A stretch of DNA of 64,000 bases from Candidatus Enterousia sp. (GCA_045612805.1 JAZKZR010000010.1:195136-259135), one strand, 5' to 3'. Counted from the first letter of the stretch, positions 7,840 through 64,000 are shown. Made by a program: numbers and translations. The notes: generated by a model from the sequence alone, not told the origin.

Positions 7840-8118
7840 TTATGATTTATATAATATATCTTCTAAAACACTCACTACAATTTTGCCTAAATATCGACCA
7901 TTAAAGGCAACTTTATCGCTTAACAAATTTGCTTGTATTTGGTGTTTTAGTGCACTAAGGTTATCTTTGCTAGGACGGCTATCAAGATAATAATCTAATA
8001 CCTTATCGACAAATTCTACGGTTTGCGCATGCGTGATTTGATTAGCAATGAATTTTACATTTTGTCTACCTAAAGTTGCAAAATATAAACCTTTTGCAAC
8101 ATCGTCTATAATGAACAT
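7840..8118 (-). CDS. Hypothetical protein (AT-rich cassette)
   Basis: 92-aa ORF, co-directional and tightly spaced with the two downstream ORFs. Confidence 0.4.
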   Translation of the reverse strand: MFIIDDVAKGLYFATLGRQNVKFIANQITHAQTVEFVDKVLDYYLDSRPSKDNLSALKHQIQANLLSDKVAFNGRYLGKIVVSVLEDILYKS

Positions 8119-8456
8119 GTTATTCTCCTTTGTATAAAAACTAAGACCGCCAAAGGAATAGCGGTCAGGGAGTTGATAAATCAGTATCTTAATGATTTCG
8201 TGGCTTTCGGGTTGCCCCTATTTTATAACCAACGGCTCCCCGACCATAAAGCCAGGGATGGTAACGGTGCAAAAGACACCGATAACACCAGATTACGGTG
8301 CTTTCGCACCGAAGATACTGGGCTTATCACAGCCCTGAACCCAATTCCCATTGGATTCATGGCATATTATACACGAAAGAGCGATGTTTTGCAAATATCT
8401 TTCAATTCATACTTGCTTTTCGGCGTAAAACCAATATAATTGCGCATGATGGTATA

Positions 8457-8533
8457 AGCACCCATAGCACAACTGGATAATGCGTCGGCCTCCGAAGCCG
8501 GAGATTGCGCGTTCGAATCGCGCTGGGTGCGCC
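8457..8533 (+). tRNA. tRNA-Arg (anticodon CCG)
   Basis: Acceptor GCACCCA/TGGGTGC, anticodon loop CTCCGAA, T-arm GCGCG-TTCGAAT-CGCGC, and a genomically encoded CCA. Confidence 0.85.
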
Positions 8534-8682
8534 ATAAATACAAAGTGACGCAGAATGCGACATTTTGTATTTATCATGGGCACTCCGCGATTTGGACGCG
8601 CAGCGTTCGACACGATAGTTGGCAAGAACAAGCGTGAAAACGCGCGGTTCGCGCCTTACGAGTGGTGAGCAAAGCGAACTAT

Positions 8683-8696
8683 CCGCTGGGTGCGCC
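8683..8696 (+). repeat. Direct repeat of the tRNA-Arg 3' end (att-like remnant)
   Basis: cgctgggtgcgcca repeats the last 14 nt of the tRNA (including CCA), 150 bp downstream and in the same orientation. Confidence 0.45.
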
Positions 8697-8716
8697 ACTT
8701 TAACTGGGTAATCATA

Positions 8717-9154
8717 ATGAAATTTTTATCTTTATTTTCCGTTTTGTTTCTTGCCGCCTGCAACAGTGTTTATCTTAAACCGAACACGATGGTGCCGGGG
8801 ACAACGGTTTATGCATCGCGTGGCGGAAACACCATGACCCGCGGGATAAAGGAAAAATTGGAAGAACATGGGTTTACCGTAAATGTGGGCAGTTTAAAGG
8901 ACGAATCTTCGATTGATGTTGATAAATTTAGTGTCCCCAAAAACACGCGCTATATTGTCCGCGTAAGCGAACAAGCGGAAACATTTATGCCATATTGGTG
9001 CATATTTAACGGATTTTGGTGGTGGCGATTTAATGTTTCAATTGCCGACCAGAAAACAGGCGAAGAAATTTTATCTTGGCGCGGACGCGGGTGCCAAAAC
9101 AGTTCCCTGCGCAAACTTGATAAATTCCTGGACGAATTGGAAATTAAAGAATAA
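8717..9154 (+). CDS. Lipoprotein (predicted)
   Basis: MKFLSLFSVLFLAAC lipobox. The start is placed at the second Met so that it does not overlap the att-like repeat. Confidence 0.5.
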   Translation: MKFLSLFSVLFLAACNSVYLKPNTMVPGTTVYASRGGNTMTRGIKEKLEEHGFTVNVGSLKDESSIDVDKFSVPKNTRYIVRVSEQAETFMPYWCIFNGFWWWRFNVSIADQKTGEEILSWRGRGCQNSSLRKLDKFLDELEIKE

Positions 9155-10454: not shown

Positions 10455-12525
<2,071 letters not shown>

Positions 12526-12546
12526 AACAAACAAAAAGGTGAAAAA

Positions 12547-12780
12547 ATGTTAGGAAAAATGAAAAAAATATTCTTTGGTGGTATATTCTGCGCATTGTAT
12601 ATTTCGTTTATTGCACAGTTTGTTTATGTGCTGGGTTGGATTTCCATGAACGATGGAAAGTTGGCGTTTTTGGCCGCACTGTCACTTGAATGGTTGTTCT
12701 TGATTGGTGCACGTTATTTATCACGCCGCAGTGGTGTTGCCCAACAAAAACCGGGCTTTAACGGTGGTCGCCGTCACTAA
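12547..12780 (+). CDS. Small hydrophobic protein (hypothetical)
   Basis: 77 aa with two hydrophobic helices. AAAAAGGTGAAAAA ribosome-binding site. Confidence 0.35.
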   Translation: MLGKMKKIFFGGIFCALYISFIAQFVYVLGWISMNDGKLAFLAALSLEWLFLIGARYLSRRSGVAQQKPGFNGGRRH

Positions 12781-54921: not shown

Positions 54922-55012
54922 TGGCGGAGCGGATAGGACTCGAACCTATGGACCGCTATAACACGGTCACGGATTAGCAATCCGCTGCATTACCACTCTG
55001 CCAACGCTCCGC
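54922..55012 (-). tRNA. tRNA-Ser (anticodon GCT), class II
   Basis: Acceptor GCGGAGC, anticodon loop TTGCTAA, long variable arm, T-loop TTCGAGT, encoded CCA. Confidence 0.85.
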
Positions 55013-55345: not shown

Positions 55346-55861
55346 TCACAAATTCAATGCGTAAATTCCGTTTTCATATATGTTTAGTTCAACTTCGCGT
55401 CGGCGAATAAGGCCTGCGCTCACATGGCCGCCAGTTTTGTTCCATGCCCGCCACGCCGCGCCCAGATTAAAGTATCGCGCGCTTTTGAAATTCGGATTGT
55501 TTATATATTTTACAACCGTCGAATTTGCAAAATTCCGCGCGCCAATGTTAAAGCACAGCATTACCAACGCATCAAATTGATTTTGCCGCAGGTTAGTCGT
55601 TATTGCGTTGCATACCGCGTGTTCTGCCACCGACAAATCACCACGCAAAATTTTCGTTGCCGCATCTTCATCGATTCCGTCACGAAAATCTTCGCCTGGT
55701 TTAATCAAATGCCCATATCCAATCGTTGCGCCGGCTGGCAGTGGCGCGCCCGCCGCAATCGGTTGCCCGTTTTTATCGTCGTATATAACATGCCGGCCAT
55801 TACGCATGACGCGGCCTTCGCACTGTTTCAATGTGCGAATGCCATTATCACTTAGTTTCAT
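55346..55861 (-). CDS. Phage-type lysozyme (GH24, P22 gp19 / T4 lysozyme-like)
   Basis: MKLSDNGIRTLKQCEGRV...TIGYGH...NQFDALVMLCFNIG pattern, with the catalytic Glu in the CEGR context. Confidence 0.8.
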   Translation of the reverse strand: MKLSDNGIRTLKQCEGRVMRNGRHVIYDDKNGQPIAAGAPLPAGATIGYGHLIKPGEDFRDGIDEDAATKILRGDLSVAEHAVCNAITTNLRQNQFDALVMLCFNIGARNFANSTVVKYINNPNFKSARYFNLGAAWRAWNKTGGHVSAGLIRRREVELNIYENGIYALNL

Positions 55862-60227: not shown

Positions 60228-61166
60228 TTAATCAACCCCGTATCCCATTTGACCGGTCCCAGCGGGATAATACAGTTTTTTGTCAACGGTATCCCACATA
60301 CAATTTGTTTGTGCCATGTGTCCGCAAACATTTGTGCCAGCGGGAACGGGTTCAAAATCGTGTACCAACGTCCCTGATGTATCATATAATTTAATATAAT
60401 ACAATTTCATACCACCACTGTCTGTTTGGTCAAGCGAACTATTACTAATCAAATTATTTTTAAATATTTTTATCGTATCTGATGTTGAACATGAACCAAA
60501 CGTACGTGTTATTGTGCTTTTGTATACTCCATCGATATAATATTTAATACCCTTTTTTGTGGAATTTTGGTTTTCTGTTACAAATCTTAATAATTTTTTA
60601 CTGTTTGCTTCATTAAAATTTGTGGCTGAAGCCGAATTGGTAGATCCAAATCTAAACTGGGCACGACGTTTATGATCCAATGTCAGATCAAACCAACACG
60701 ATGAACTGTTTGTACCAAATATACGCGCACTTTTACCGTTTACAATTTTCACCTGAACATCAAGATTATATGAAGGGTTTACCGCAACACCCGTATCAAA
60801 CCACTGGTTCCCATCGGACAATAAATATGCATTTGGGGTCAGTGTTGGACCGGTGCATTCCGGGTCGGTTATAACAATCGGGTCACCCGGTTCTTCGGGC
60901 ATAACCCATGTGCCGCCACCACATTCACCATCACATATTGTATAAACGGTGCCATTTGCATTAACATGTAACGAATCCGCCGCCCACGTAGTGGTTGCAG
61001 GGGCGCAATACGTATTATTGCCAACCATAACTTTTAATTTGTGATCCGTGCTACACGAATTTTGTAAAGTGATAGAATGGTTTCCAATGCGCAAAACCTG
61101 TCCCATCGCCATACATGCGTATGTCGATATACCCAGTAATAAAAATACTCTCCCGTATCGCATCAC
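60228..61166 (-). CDS. Secreted protein that shares the jelly-roll-like module with the convergent 56436-60125 gene
   Basis: Signal peptide. YLLSDGNQWFDTGV...LYDTSGTLVHDFEPV...YYPAGTG aligns with EYLQSRNGNQFIDTGYGV...LYDNGVLKLDLIP...FYVNAGFD in the neighbouring gene. Confidence 0.7.
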   Translation of the reverse strand: MMRYGRVFLLLGISTYACMAMGQVLRIGNHSITLQNSCSTDHKLKVMVGNNTYCAPATTTWAADSLHVNANGTVYTICDGECGGGTWVMPEEPGDPIVITDPECTGPTLTPNAYLLSDGNQWFDTGVAVNPSYNLDVQVKIVNGKSARIFGTNSSSCWFDLTLDHKRRAQFRFGSTNSASATNFNEANSKKLLRFVTENQNSTKKGIKYYIDGVYKSTITRTFGSCSTSDTIKIFKNNLISNSSLDQTDSGGMKLYYIKLYDTSGTLVHDFEPVPAGTNVCGHMAQTNCMWDTVDKKLYYPAGTGQMGYGVD

Positions 61167-61282
61167 GCTTAGGGTCCATTCTTATGGTATCAAAACAATT
61201 ATGATGTGACACCAACCATACTAAGTGTAAAAAAAAACTTGTCACCAAGACAAGCGTTTTATGTGAAAAACGGAAAAATAAT

Positions 61283-61576
61283 TTATTCAAACCAAATTAC
61301 CGCACGGGTATTGCTTGACGTGCTGCCCACGGGAATTGTCACTTCACTTTTGGTAACGGTCACGGTTCCATTGCTTGCGGTAACACTGCTCACTATGGGA
61401 CCCGTCCCCGATTCAACAACATTTGTTGATGTTAATTTATCTTGTTTTACCGCATCCATTGTGTTATATGCTCCTTCGACATACGACCTTGTTACCACTT
61501 TTGTATTGGGTGTAACCTCGGCAAAAACCGGTGCAGTCAAGAAAATTCCGATAAAGATGCATAAAACCTTCTTCAT
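61283..61576 (-). CDS. Small secreted Thr/Ser/Val-rich protein (first of four tandem genes)
   Basis: Signal peptide MKKVLCIFIGIFLTAPVFA. Mature N-terminus PNTKVVTRSYVEGAYN. Confidence 0.55.
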   Translation of the reverse strand: MKKVLCIFIGIFLTAPVFAEVTPNTKVVTRSYVEGAYNTMDAVKQDKLTSTNVVESGTGPIVSSVTASNGTVTVTKSEVTIPVGSTSSNTRAVIWFE

Positions 61577-61653
61577 TTCGTAAATCTACCTGAACAATTA
61601 TGTTGTATAAAAATACAATCATAATTGCCCAGATATAAATTTATTTGTTTTTA

Positions 61654-62520
61654 TTACGGTTGTGTTGGGGCTGTTAATGTCACTTCTTGGTTTGTATCCG
61701 TATTCCAAGTTGTGTACACTTTCAACACTTTCGCACTTTGGGTATCAGCAGCAGTTTTTAATTCATTGATAGCAGCTGTTACCGTTTGTGCTGTCGTTTG
61801 CAAACCAGTATTACCAACTATTCCTTCCAAAGCATCTGCGTCTGCTTGTGCAGCATTTGCAGCAGATTGTGCAGTAGCGGCATTGGTTATACCTGTTTGT
61901 GCAGCGGTCATCGCAGCATTGGCAGCGGCCGCAGCGGATGCTTTTTGTGCTTCAGTAAAATGCGTATCTGTTAACGCTGCCGCAGTACCAGCAAAACCCG
62001 CTGCAGTATTAACTTCATTGATAGCACCAACTAAAGAATTTTTTTCTGTTGTTGTTAAATTATTTAAAACACCAACGCTTGTTTCCAACGCATCAACTTC
62101 GGATTGTGCAGTGGCGGCATTGGTTATACCTGTTTGTGCAGCGGTCATCGCAGCATTGGCAGCGGCCGCAGCGGATGCTTTTTGTGCTTCAGTAAAATGC
62201 GTATCTGTTAACGCTGCCGCAGTACCAGCAAAACCCGCTGCGGTATTAACTTCATTGATAGCACCAACTAAAGAATTTTTTTCTGTAGTTGTCAATGTTG
62301 TTAAATCACCTTCGGCTGCTTTTGCACGGGCATTTTCTGCGTTTGCAACTGCAACTGCGGCATTATATGCACCACGAACAAATGATGTTGATGCAACATT
62401 AGTGTTTGGGGTTGCATCCACTGGTTCCGCCGGAACTGTACCGATTGTCGGTGTTGCGTTCGCCGCCATTGGTAAAATCGCCAAAGCCGCGATTACCGAT
62501 ATGTTTAAGATTTTTTTCAT
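61654..62520 (-). CDS. Secreted Ala/Thr-rich fibrous protein with an internal 79-aa tandem duplication
   Basis: Signal peptide MKKILNISVIAALAILPMAANA. PNTNVASTSFVRGAYN. The 63-aa block TTEKNSLVGAINEVN...ITNAATAQS occurs twice within a 79-aa unit. The antisense ORF at 61625-62719 is rejected. Confidence 0.7.
   Translation of the reverse strand: MKKILNISVIAALAILPMAANATPTIGTVPAEPVDATPNTNVASTSFVRGAYNAAVAVANAENARAKAAEGDLTTLTTTEKNSLVGAINEVNTAAGFAGTAAALTDTHFTEAQKASAAAAANAAMTAAQTGITNAATAQSEVDALETSVGVLNNLTTTEKNSLVGAINEVNTAAGFAGTAAALTDTHFTEAQKASAAAAANAAMTAAQTGITNAATAQSAANAAQADADALEGIVGNTGLQTTAQTVTAAINELKTAADTQSAKVLKVYTTWNTDTNQEVTLTAPTQP
61865..62307. repeat. Near-perfect tandem duplication (237-bp period, about 200 bp per copy, 2 mismatches) inside gene 61654-62520
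   Basis: gattgtgcagt(a/g)gcggcattggttatacctgtttgtgcagcggtcatcgcagcattggcagcggccgcagcggatgc... occurs at 61865 and at 62102. Confidence 0.8.
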
Positions 62521-62618
62521 TCTCTTTCTCCTTGTTTGTTTTTGGTTTACCTGTGCGCATTATATCATAATAAAAAATTTTTTTGAACAATATAATGCAC
62601 TGTTTTTAATTTTTTTTT

Positions 62619-63194
62619 TTAGTTACCACTCAACACGTTATTTTCAAATGCTTCTGCACTCCATGTGGATTCTACCTCCATCGCCTGCCATGTTCCAGCA
62701 CCGTAGGCATCGGTTTTGAAAACATATGTTGTGTTCGCAGATGTGGTCACATCCAACCCGATTGTCGATGGGTTATCGCCGGTTCCTGGTGTGACCTTGA
62801 CACCGGTTCCCGCGGTGTAACCATTGGAATTTTCCAAATCGGTCACCCGTTTTACCAAACCACTGGTTGAATCACCGACTGTCGATTGCAAACTTTGAAC
62901 GGCACCCTTCAAACCGGTCCCCGGCGTGTTGCCTTCACCCACGGTTCCAATATCACCGACCAATCCGGTCGCCGGATCGTTACCACTTGCGGGTGCACCA
63001 ACAATGTTTTGCAAACTTTTTACCGCACCATCCGATATTCCACTTGCAACCTTGTACACGTATTTCAACCCGTCATCCACGTATCCCTTGGTTGTTAATG
63101 CCGCAGAACTGGCATCCGGAACCGGGTCCGCGTATGCGCCGATTGAAATCATCGATACTGATGCAATCAAACCATACAAAAAGTTTCTTTTCAT
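62619..63194 (-). CDS. Secreted Gly/Thr-rich protein in the same four-gene cluster
   Basis: Signal peptide MKRNFLYGLIASVSMISIGAYA. Mature N-terminus contains ALTTKGYVDDGLKYVYK. Confidence 0.6.
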   Translation of the reverse strand: MKRNFLYGLIASVSMISIGAYADPVPDASSAALTTKGYVDDGLKYVYKVASGISDGAVKSLQNIVGAPASGNDPATGLVGDIGTVGEGNTPGTGLKGAVQSLQSTVGDSTSGLVKRVTDLENSNGYTAGTGVKVTPGTGDNPSTIGLDVTTSANTTYVFKTDAYGAGTWQAMEVESTWSAEAFENNVLSGN

Positions 63195-63245
63195 TTCTAT
63201 CGTTCCTCCTTTTTTTTGTTAGTTTTTTTGTTTGTCTCTCTCGCC

Positions 63246-63980
63246 CTATGGTTGACCTTGGGTGCCACCGGTTTGACCATCATGCAAAAAACTGGGGTCA
63301 AATACCTTTACAACCTTTGCATTGGCCAAGTCGCCTACAATCTGGTCAACGTATTGTTTGGTATAATAATTATTTTGCAGATATGTTTTTGTTTGGTCAA
63401 TCGTATAATACTTTGTGACATCAACAAAGTCGGTTAAGTTGCCTATTTGTTGTTCCATTTCGGCAACCTTGTCCGGCAAAATCGCGATTTCTTCGGTCAC
63501 GCCGATTATGTTGCCGGTAATATCAATCCCATCGCCCGGTTCCAATGTTTCCTGTTTTGTTGTCATTTGGTCTTCCAACGCTGCAACCCGATTCGTTAAA
63601 TCGGACACATCTGTATTCGCACCACCGGACGGTGTTGTGTTATTTGACGGAATTTTTGAACTTATGCTTTTTACAATATTGCCATGAAGCCCCGACAACC
63701 GCATAGAATTCGCAGAACCCAATGTTGTTGACGTGGTAGTGCCCGAAACATTTGCACCACTGGTCGCCACGTTCTTCGGGCTAAGGTATGACCCCGATGT
63801 CCGTATGGATGATGCCCGCGTCGTGGTTGTTTTCGGGGGAACAACATTGTTGATTTGTGTGCCACCTGTATTTGTTGCGCCCAACCTTTTTACCGTCGGC
63901 GCCCCCACCGCCGGATACGTCAAAACACCCGTCGATACCAACGAAAACGCCAAAAACAATACGTTTCGATATAACATCAT
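63246..63980 (-). CDS. Secreted coiled-coil protein in the same four-gene cluster
   Basis: Signal peptide MMLYRNVLFLAFSLVSTGVLTYPAVGA. Ser/Thr-rich linker, predicted coiled coil ...RVAALEDQMTTKQETLE..., C-terminal TKQYVDQIVGDL. Confidence 0.6.
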   Translation of the reverse strand: MMLYRNVLFLAFSLVSTGVLTYPAVGAPTVKRLGATNTGGTQINNVVPPKTTTTRASSIRTSGSYLSPKNVATSGANVSGTTTSTTLGSANSMRLSGLHGNIVKSISSKIPSNNTTPSGGANTDVSDLTNRVAALEDQMTTKQETLEPGDGIDITGNIIGVTEEIAILPDKVAEMEQQIGNLTDFVDVTKYYTIDQTKTYLQNNYYTKQYVDQIVGDLANAKVVKVFDPSFLHDGQTGGTQGQP

Positions 63981-64000
63981 AGATTCCTATCAACACACAT

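Follow-up and report, generated by a model that had tools for sequence, protein, structure and literature searches.

Bacteria of the Rs-D84 lineage, which includes Candidatus Enterousia, are widespread in the guts of ruminants, horses, chickens and humans, and the question raised by the locus described here is how such bacteria contact a partner. Enterousia is placed in the order Rs-D84, with genomes smaller than 1 Mb that lack flagella, the tricarboxylic acid cycle, respiration and the standard transporters, and it has been proposed that these bacteria live as obligate symbionts or parasites, drawing metabolites from other cells (PMC12306168). The locus is a cassette of four genes at positions 61283–63980 of a 64,000-nucleotide stretch from Candidatus Enterousia sp. 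(GCA_045612805.1 JAZKZR010000010.1:195136-259135), and this whole stretch is referred to as the window. The literature found on Enterousia and Rs-D84 consisted of genome-content papers, none of which described the four proteins. The best explanation of the data is that the cassette is lineage-specific and vertically conserved in genome-reduced, partner-dependent gut Alphaproteobacteria. There is about an even chance that domesticated modules of phage fibers and fibritin form Sec-exported, probably trimeric fibers on its bearers, for which we infer passage across the outer membrane and exposure at the cell surface. The most likely role of such fibers would be contact or adhesion, given that the lineage is thought to live in dependence on other cells.

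The four genes and their export signals

A preliminary description of the locus had placed four co-directional genes in this region, and minus-strand open reading frames (ORFs) were found at exactly those positions. Listed from the first gene of the cassette, they are:

63246–63980, minus strand: P4, first gene of the cassette, ORF of 244 amino acids
62619–63194, minus strand: P3, fibritin-like, ORF of 191 amino acids
61654–62520, minus strand: P2, hypervariable mosaic fiber, ORF of 288 amino acids
61283–61576, minus strand: P1, signal peptide and module of about 75 residues, ORF of 97 amino acids

For each ORF an ortholog occupies the corresponding slot in 13 further species-level genomes, and the four are therefore regarded as real genes. 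A plus-strand ORF of 364 amino acids (61625–62719) is the antisense shadow of the Ala-rich P2. The peptides quoted in the preliminary description were all recovered, namely PNTKVVTRSYVEGAYN in P1, PNTNVASTSFVRGAYNAA in P2, ALTTKGYVDDGLKYV in P3 and TKQYVDQIVGDL near the C-terminus of P4. The YV motif that the proteins were said to share was present too, in two flavors: P1 and P2 have [ST]x[YF]VxGAYN, whereas the form in P3 and P4 is TKxYVD.

Export was assessed using a heuristic test, which agreed with the cleavable signal peptides claimed earlier in that Sec-type features were seen in all four proteins and in their orthologs. Each protein has a basic n-region, a hydrophobic h-region (10-residue Kyte-Doolittle maximum 2.3–3.3) and an AXA-type site, with cleavage placed at VFA↓E (P1), ANA↓T (P2), AYA↓D (P3) and AVG↓A (P4); the heuristic check found neither a lipobox cysteine nor a twin-arginine motif in the four proteins. 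The mature parts are free of cysteine and contain 54–68% A+T+G+S+V+N, compared to 41% in the housekeeping proteins of the window. The earlier portrayal of the proteins as secreted and fibrous is supported by these signal-peptide features and by the fiber-type modules described below. The bodies had also been called coiled-coil-prone, and by a crude test of hydrophobic 3.5–3.67-residue (heptad-type) periodicity this was true of P3 (z up to 7.7) and of part of P4 (z about 3); no such periodicity was detected in P2 (z≤2), and P1 is mostly beta in its AlphaFold model.

A pilus-like or S-layer-like nature had been suggested and found no support. The N-termini are of the classical Sec type with AXA sites and not of the prepilin type G↓F(T/M)LxE; the Pfam lists of neighbors at 4 loci held no usher or chaperone gene; no SLH, RTX or S-layer domain was matched by Pfam or NCBIfam in the four proteins; and the secretion signals of those systems were not seen. 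The anatomy set out below points to phage-fiber-type, probably trimeric fibers, not to polymerized pilins.

Conservation and variation of the cassette

Species-level loci were collected from contigs carrying homologs and by a scan of one genome per GTDB species. Homologs of all four proteins occurred only in uncultured gut or rumen metagenome-assembled genomes (MAGs) named 'Alphaproteobacteria bacterium', several of them labelled Candidatus Enterousia. Thirteen species-level loci of the Ca. Enterousia / Rs-D84 lineage were obtained, and essentially all have the same arrangement of a small outer-membrane protein (OMP) gene, P4, P3, P2, P1 and a Cys-rich giant gene. The OMP gene, for a beta-barrel (PF13505), is divergent from the cassette and the giant gene is convergent with it; judging from the relatives, the OMP gene of this genome lies just past base 64000 of the window. 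The four genes had been taken for a paralogous family, in the sense of a recent tandem expansion, and the loci instead revealed four distinct orthologous groups in the fixed order P4>P3>P2>P1 that are kept across species. Similarity between the slots, measured with hhalign, is confined to terminal modules: P1 and P2 match over the signal peptide and N-terminal motif (probability 97%, E=5e-11), P3 matches P2 (probability 96%, E=2e-9), and P3 and P4 match at their C-termini, which contain a coiled coil, a GDGI motif and [FW]DPxFL (probability 62%, E=7.5e-5).

An analogous array was found in a second, more distant lineage with a guanine plus cytosine (GC) content of 42–43%, in another chromosomal context beside rbfA and lepA (L018, 2540–7449; L019, 1801–8443). 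In both of these loci the OMP is followed by a P4-like protein of 408 or 601 amino acids in first place and then by the fibers, one or two of which open with AEIAS[KR]AYVD or ADIASSAYVD directly after the signal peptide, and the last of which ends in the P1 module (...IWVE).

The genes of the locus differ in their rate of change. Median pairwise identity over 11 species was 39% for P2, 43% for P4, 48% for P3, 59% for the OMP, 66% for the Cys-rich gene and 69% for P1, making P1 the most conserved of the four cassette genes. When the window was compared with its closest relative (L011), nucleotide identity was 96% over P4 and the 5' end of P3, to about 62998, fell to a mosaic of 75–88% over the rest of P3, P2 and P1, and returned to 95% from 60126. 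Because identity shifts this sharply along the locus, the distal genes are taken to behave as a recombination cassette. The pattern of variation can be read as the signature of an exposed surface under selection.

The variation is most easily followed in P2, whose orthologs are 29–55% identical and contain differing sets of modules and two types of C-terminus. In the window its body carries a duplication:

61865–62292: tandem duplication in P2, 237 bp (79 amino acids), 1.8 copies, 98% identity

This duplication is a recent change of fiber length. In a MAG from goat omasum (L016) the P2 slot is split into two ORFs, 7895–8203 and 8229–8855, a split that might stem from a frameshift, phase variation or faulty assembly or might mark a pseudogene.

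Modules of phage-fiber type

P2 consists of a conserved signal peptide, the N-terminal motif NVAxTS[YF]VxGAYNAA and an Ala/Thr-rich body of exchangeable modules. The body includes the phage-type repeat TTEKNSLVGAINE, which it has in common with tail-fiber proteins, and the C-terminus is AKVLKVYTTWNTDTNQEVTLT. The tail-fiber family phrog_25848 matched P2 over the repeat region with E=6e-9, and the Pfam domain aRib matched below threshold (E=5e-5).

P3 begins with its signal peptide and the invariant LTTKGYVDxGLKYVY, continues with a variable number of TGLxGDVExLQxxVG coiled-coil segments and YTAGxGIxVT, and closes with the beta-hairpin YVFKTDxNGxGTWxxxEVExxW. Its family has 109 members of 131–273 amino acids, all unnamed, among which P0121 is a 100%-identical match. 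When the family profile was compared with the PDB the best match was T4 fibritin, aligned over the segmented coiled coil with E=0.0016; weak matches in the same direction came from Fibritin_C in Pfam (E=0.16) and from the 'fibritin neck whisker' family in PHROG (E=0.055). The AlphaFold2 monomer model of P3, with a predicted local distance difference test (pLDDT) score of 72, has interrupted helices and C-terminal hairpins. Likeness of the C-terminus to the fibritin foldon was mixed: with the C-terminus of one family member (P0223), foldon-containing chains were 4 of the top 5 PDB matches, though weak (E=0.2–0.9); with that of another (P0229), no foldon chain was retrieved; and in a family-profile search of the foldon together with 2,000 shuffles the real foldon took rank 28 (0-based) of 2,001, 28 shuffles scoring higher.

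Behind its signal peptide, P4 has an N-terminal region (APTVKRLG...RASSxR...RLSGLHGN) that is unique to it, conserved, basic and rich in Ser and Thr. A coiled coil with the GDGI motif follows (SDLTxRVxALE...LEPGDGIDI), then NYYTIDQT / YYTKQYVDQI and a terminal FDPSFL. Its 16 relatives are all of the same lineage and all unnamed.

The preliminary description had found no assignable known family for the four proteins, and profile searches bore this out. Pfam and NCBIfam gave nothing above threshold for P1–P4, the PHROG scan gave no family-level assignment, with no match better than E=0.0087 for P1, P3 and P4, and the profile matches that were obtained were at the level of modules, namely the tail-fiber PHROG for P2 and fibritin for the P3 family. 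The profile searches contained no confident match to a characterized family that would explain all four proteins. Sequence searches of the PDB with the single proteins and with family profiles returned only the borderline fibritin match for P3, and coiled-coil noise for P1, P2 and P4. When the monomer models of P1 and P3 were compared with the PDB and BFVD by Foldseek there was no significant match (best E 0.05), several tail fibers being among the weak ones. Membership of a phage tail-fiber family is not indicated, as only P2 matches one, over its repeat region, and no tail or baseplate genes adjoin the cassette.

Modules of this kind could mean that the four proteins are tail fibers or whiskers of a prophage, a tailocin or a gene transfer agent (GTA), assembled in the cytoplasm and bearing signal peptides that are incidental. 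Besides the module-level likeness to tail-fiber PHROGs and to fibritin, a phage-type lysozyme gene 5 kb away may be cited in favor of this:

55346–55861, minus strand: GH24 phage-type lysozyme without a signal peptide (Pfam PF00959, E=3e-27)
54922–55010, minus strand: tRNA-Ser adjoining the GH24 lysozyme gene

In NCBIfam the lysozyme came closest to the Bartonella GTA endolysin and then to the SpmX muramidase domain, each match lying far under the cutoff. Against a phage or GTA apparatus, every species retains signal peptides in each of the four slots, and P3 and its 109 relatives all open with a signal peptide followed by LTTKGYVD, not with a neck-attachment domain, in a non-viral context. 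The window is chromosomal, with Mla transporter genes, RNase E/G, an AmiC-type amidase, acetyl-CoA carboxylase, five tRNAs and a two-piece alphaproteobacterial transfer-messenger RNA (tmRNA). The neighbors in the window and in related loci are housekeeping genes in conserved synteny, GC content is uniform over the 64 kb and is the same in the cassette as in its surroundings, and no capsid, terminase, tail or baseplate genes were present in the window or in related loci. No relatives of P1, P3 or P4 were found among the 2.9 million viral contigs of IMG/VR, nor of P2 among 50,697 phage genomes (INPHARED, tblastn), and a phage origin of the genes was rejected for this lack of viral relatives. The phage or GTA apparatus is therefore largely refuted and highly improbable. 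The earlier observation that the cassette is near a lysozyme and Cys-rich proteins was correct. Lysozyme orthologs lie near the cassette in several species, and the link is purely positional, the gene being a conserved chromosomal neighbor in some species and not part of a prophage. In L002 a lysozyme gene of the same neighborhood also has TPR repeats and was not recovered as a homolog of the window lysozyme at E≤1e-5. A recent genomic island at the tRNA-Ser was ruled out by cross-species synteny and the unremarkable GC content.

The P1 module and the Cys-rich neighbors

The module of about 75 residues that makes up most of P1 contains a helix (SYVEGAYNxMDAVKQDKL), a short beta domain and the ending ...IPVGxxxxxTRAxIWFE; the AlphaFold2 model of P1 (pLDDT 81.6) has a single helix and after it five short strands. 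When 1.84 billion representative proteins were searched exhaustively with phmmer, 92 relatives were obtained. In 87 of these the module forms the exact C-terminus of the protein, with the tetrapeptide [IV]W[VIFL][EQ], and a hydrophobic segment is present at the N-terminus in 71 of the 92. The parts to which the module is appended are diverse and include the N-terminal half of P4, a Cys-rich domain, a LamG-like region and phage tail-fiber repeats. Carriers of the module also contain tail-fiber PHROG modules, related fusion proteins match phrog_9915, and the module is likewise C-terminal in leucine-rich-repeat (LRR)-like and lectin-like proteins.

The core of the module, KQDKLT...G.G..V..V....G.VTV.K, was also found as an internal repeat, three times in P0326 and 13 times in a 4421-residue Paenibacillus protein. 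The latter belongs to a pair of Firmicute proteins of 4421–4502 amino acids from Paenibacillus plantiphilus (P0271 / P0338), annotated as 'calcium-binding protein'. The recurrence of the core in these giants indicates that the repeat unit is far more widespread than the cassette. A barrel anchor of the kind found in trimeric autotransporter adhesins was considered for the module, with its helix and 4–5 strands, and was rejected: the strands are of 3–8 residues and polar, and the core recurs as an internal repeat. For this last reason the module is taken to be a soluble fiber element and not a membrane barrel.

Two genes for Cys-rich proteins lie beyond P1:

56421–60125, plus strand: Cys-rich secreted protein of 1234 amino acids, conserved convergent neighbor of the cassette in nearly all species (by synteny)
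60228–61166, minus strand: secreted Cys-containing protein of 312 amino acids with a lectin-like C-terminal half, variable accessory gene beside P1

The 1234-residue protein had no Pfam match. Its N-terminal domain of about 330 residues is elsewhere fused to the P1 module, the fusion proteins P0314, P0275, P0307 and P0303 matching it with E=1e-29 to 1e-60 and P0312, P0301 and P0293 matching as well, and its LamG-like middle region is fused to the P1 module in other metagenomic proteins. By a Rosetta-stone argument these fusions tie the fiber cassette to the adjacent Cys-rich proteins, which suggests that the cassette and the 1234-residue protein are functionally linked. The 312-residue gene stands immediately behind P1 in L006, occupies an inverted and displaced position in L002 and is missing from the closest relative, L011; it seems to belong to the variable segment as an accessory gene.

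Expression signals

The cassette contains separate predicted expression signals. The 51-nt gap between P4 and P3 contains a strong ribosome-binding site, and neither a promoter nor a hairpin was found there. The signals that were found further along are:

62555–62600, minus strand: conserved inverted repeat in the P3–P2 spacer that embeds the predicted P2 promoter (palindrome ATGCATTATAT...ATGATATAATGCAT)
61581–61643, minus strand: long conserved hairpin from the P2 stop to the P1 start, pairing with the P1 Shine-Dalgarno region
61237–61255, minus strand: intrinsic-terminator-like stem and T9 run after P1, marking the end of the cassette

The predicted P2 promoter is the near-consensus TTCAAA-17-TGATATAAT, with hexamers at 62559–62587, a scan score of 10/12 and an extended -10. 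In 9 of 11 species TGATATAAT is located 35–47 nt upstream of the P2 ATG, always inside the same palindrome, which could be an operator or the terminator of a P4–P3 transcript.

The hairpin between P2 and P1 has a folding energy of -25.5 kcal/mol (z=-8.3), and none of 200 shuffles folded equally well. Over 14 species 90% of the alignment cells were paired, compared to 38–50% with the partner slid, and compensatory changes were seen in seven pairs; many G-U pairs on the sense strand favor an element that acts at the RNA level. A U-run follows the hairpin in most species, and a near-consensus promoter occupies its 5' arm and loop in most species, read by eye from the alignment as TGGACA-17-TGGTATAAT. 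With a promoter inside the hairpin and a U-run after it, a terminator and a promoter appear to overlap at this site, and the hairpin is likely to act as a terminator, mRNA stabilizer or attenuator that sets the ratio of P2 to P1. The stem after P1 folds no better than shuffles (z=-1.6) and was called from its pattern of a stem and T-run. The layout as a whole would fit an abundant P2 and a separately dosed P1, in the manner of major and minor subunits.

Abundance of this kind might also serve protection. On that account the proteins would form a surface coat of dense fibers, comparable to an S-layer or 'hairy nap', that protects the cell against phages, bacteriocins or host immunity or serves as a phage decoy, and would not be adhesive. 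The strong, conserved predicted promoter that P2 has to itself and the stabilizing hairpin fit a very abundant product, and hypervariability would fit pressure from phages or immunity as well as it fits partner recognition. Nothing decisive speaks against a coat; the four proteins carry no S-layer-type domain or secretion signal, and the inferred dependence of the lineage on other cells favors contact. A purely protective coat is considered unlikely.

A proposed fiber system

In the contact-fiber reading each protein would be exported by Sec and then fold outside the cytoplasm, probably as a trimer, with folding nucleated by a small C-terminal beta element, such as the possibly foldon-like hairpin of P3 or the IW[VF]E module of P1. 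P4 is proposed as the envelope-proximal base or anchor because its basic N-terminus is unique and lacks the N-terminal YV motif, and because it comes first in the arrays of both lineages, beside the OMP gene; the divergent small outer-membrane beta-barrel may help in anchoring. P3, P2 and P1 would be alternative or successive fibers that dock by the shared post-signal motif [ST]-x-x-[YF]-V, with P2 as the abundant, antigenically variable major fiber. The fibers would contact other cells, either partner or host, and hence be under diversifying selection.

Several observations weigh against this proposal. The fibritin match of the P3 family is borderline (E=0.0016) and the foldon likeness of the P3 C-terminus differs between P0223 (E=0.2–0.9) and P0229 (none), with 28 shuffles above the real foldon. 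Heptad periodicity was not clear in P2 by the crude test (z≤2), and the monomer models gave no significant structural neighbor. No YadA anchor, usher, secretin or type IX secretion system (T9SS) C-terminal domain was recognizable in the proteins or near the cassette. With no recognizable outer-membrane translocator or anchor, the proteins could stay in the periplasm.

Periplasmic proteins of this kind would be structural components of the envelope, trimeric coiled-coil tethers between the outer membrane and the peptidoglycan that resemble Braun's lipoprotein and remain unexposed. Such tethers would need only the Sec signal that is seen, would account for the tight conserved linkage to a small OMP beta-barrel gene, and would suit the coiled-coil segments of P3 and P4 and the basic N-terminal region of P4. 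It would be unusual, however, for a periplasmic scaffold to be hypervariable, to have shuffled modules, to be encoded in a cassette bounded by recombination and to carry a recent duplication within one of its genes; the modules are of the type found in phage receptor-binding fibers, and the C-terminal module of P1 also ends LRR-like and lectin-like proteins, which is typical of surface adhesins. Confinement to the periplasm is thus regarded as distinctly unlikely.

A bolder form of the contact-fiber reading is offered tentatively and is unlikely as it stands. The cassette would form the core of a new system for surface display in gut bacteria that depend obligately on partners, in which an OMP-linked P4 base carries interchangeable trimeric fibers that are exported by Sec and dock by an N-terminal motif of the T-K-x-Y-V-D type, and in which swapping of the distal genes by recombination retargets the cell to other partner cells. 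The IW[VIFL][EQ] module would act in assembly or sorting as a C-terminal domain of a new kind, and by analogy its role may be comparable to that of the T9SS C-terminal domain or the foldon, shared by fibers and by LRR-like, lectin-like and Cys-rich adhesins.

The cassette takes up a measurable share of a genome of less than 1 Mb. Conserved, fast-diversifying exported fibers with predicted strong expression in so small a genome make it an obvious candidate for the contact apparatus of these bacteria. The proteins could be used as antigens to label or sort cells and in screens for partner binding, and the locus could serve as a marker for strain typing. The C-terminal IW[VIFL][EQ] module may be of wider interest as a new assembly or sorting domain.

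Other features of the window

12163–12519, plus strand: two-piece (permuted) alphaproteobacterial tmRNA (Rfam RF01849, 149 bits)

A minus-strand ORF of 129 amino acids (12206–12595) overlaps the tmRNA and is probably spurious. A single plus-strand ORF of 6788 amino acids spans 19703–40069 and presumably encodes one more giant surface protein of this genome, whose size is about 1 Mb. Pfam matched it only at Listeria-Bacteroides repeats (Flg_new, E=8e-18) and, weakly, at a Cys-rich piece of TNFR-like type.

Comparison with known systems

The apparent resemblance of P3 to T4 fibritin (gp wac) lies in short VxxLxxxVG coiled-coil segments, variable in number and separated by Gly-rich loops, and in a small terminal beta-hairpin. 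P3 differs in having a cleavable signal peptide, in being encoded on a bacterial chromosome and in lacking the N-terminal virion-attachment domain, and its terminal hairpin carries an insertion relative to the fibritin foldon. The long tail-fiber set of T4 (gp34-37) is similar to the cassette in that several fiber genes stand in fixed order, with conserved joining ends and a recombining, hypervariable distal part; the four genes described here are non-phage, encode signal peptides and are without chaperone or assembly genes.

Trimeric autotransporter adhesins such as YadA and Hia are, like these proteins, Sec-exported, modular and repetitive fibers of Proteobacteria, probably trimeric in the present case, with short conserved connectors and high variability. 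The proteins of the cassette are without the C-terminal YadA-type membrane anchor, for which there was no match (PF03895) at E≤1 in any of the four.

The closest functional analog is, on the features compared, the mosaic adhesive trimer (MAT) fibers of Bdellovibrio bacteriovorus, which are phage-like trimers with signal peptides on the surface of a Gram-negative cell (PMC10769870). As in the MAT fibers, the proteins are encoded by the bacterium and combine a signal peptide and, immediately behind it, a conserved N-terminal element with a shaft like that of phage tail fibers and exchangeable, mosaic distal parts. Multiple members of the MAT family serve contact with other cells, and the four proteins are likened to them in this as a predicted role. 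The MAT proteins are of about 1000 amino acids, with a beta-rich N-terminal domain of about 130 residues, beta-helical shafts and often an S74 chaperone-protease (PMC10769870), whereas the proteins described here have 97–350 amino acids and an N-terminal motif of about 15–20 residues, and are encoded in a fixed four-gene cassette beside an OMP gene. Pfam detected no Peptidase_S74 domain in P1–P4 and the MAT entries were not matched in the PDB sequence searches, so that by size, N-terminal domain and sequence the four proteins fall outside the MAT family. If the contact-fiber reading is true, the cassette would follow the Bdellovibrio MAT fibers as an independent second instance of bacteria domesticating phage-fiber modules for export by Sec. 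Bacterial surface fibers built from phage-fiber modules are already known; the features that stand out here are the fixed, OMP-linked cassette of four slots and the C-terminal IW[VIFL][EQ] module.

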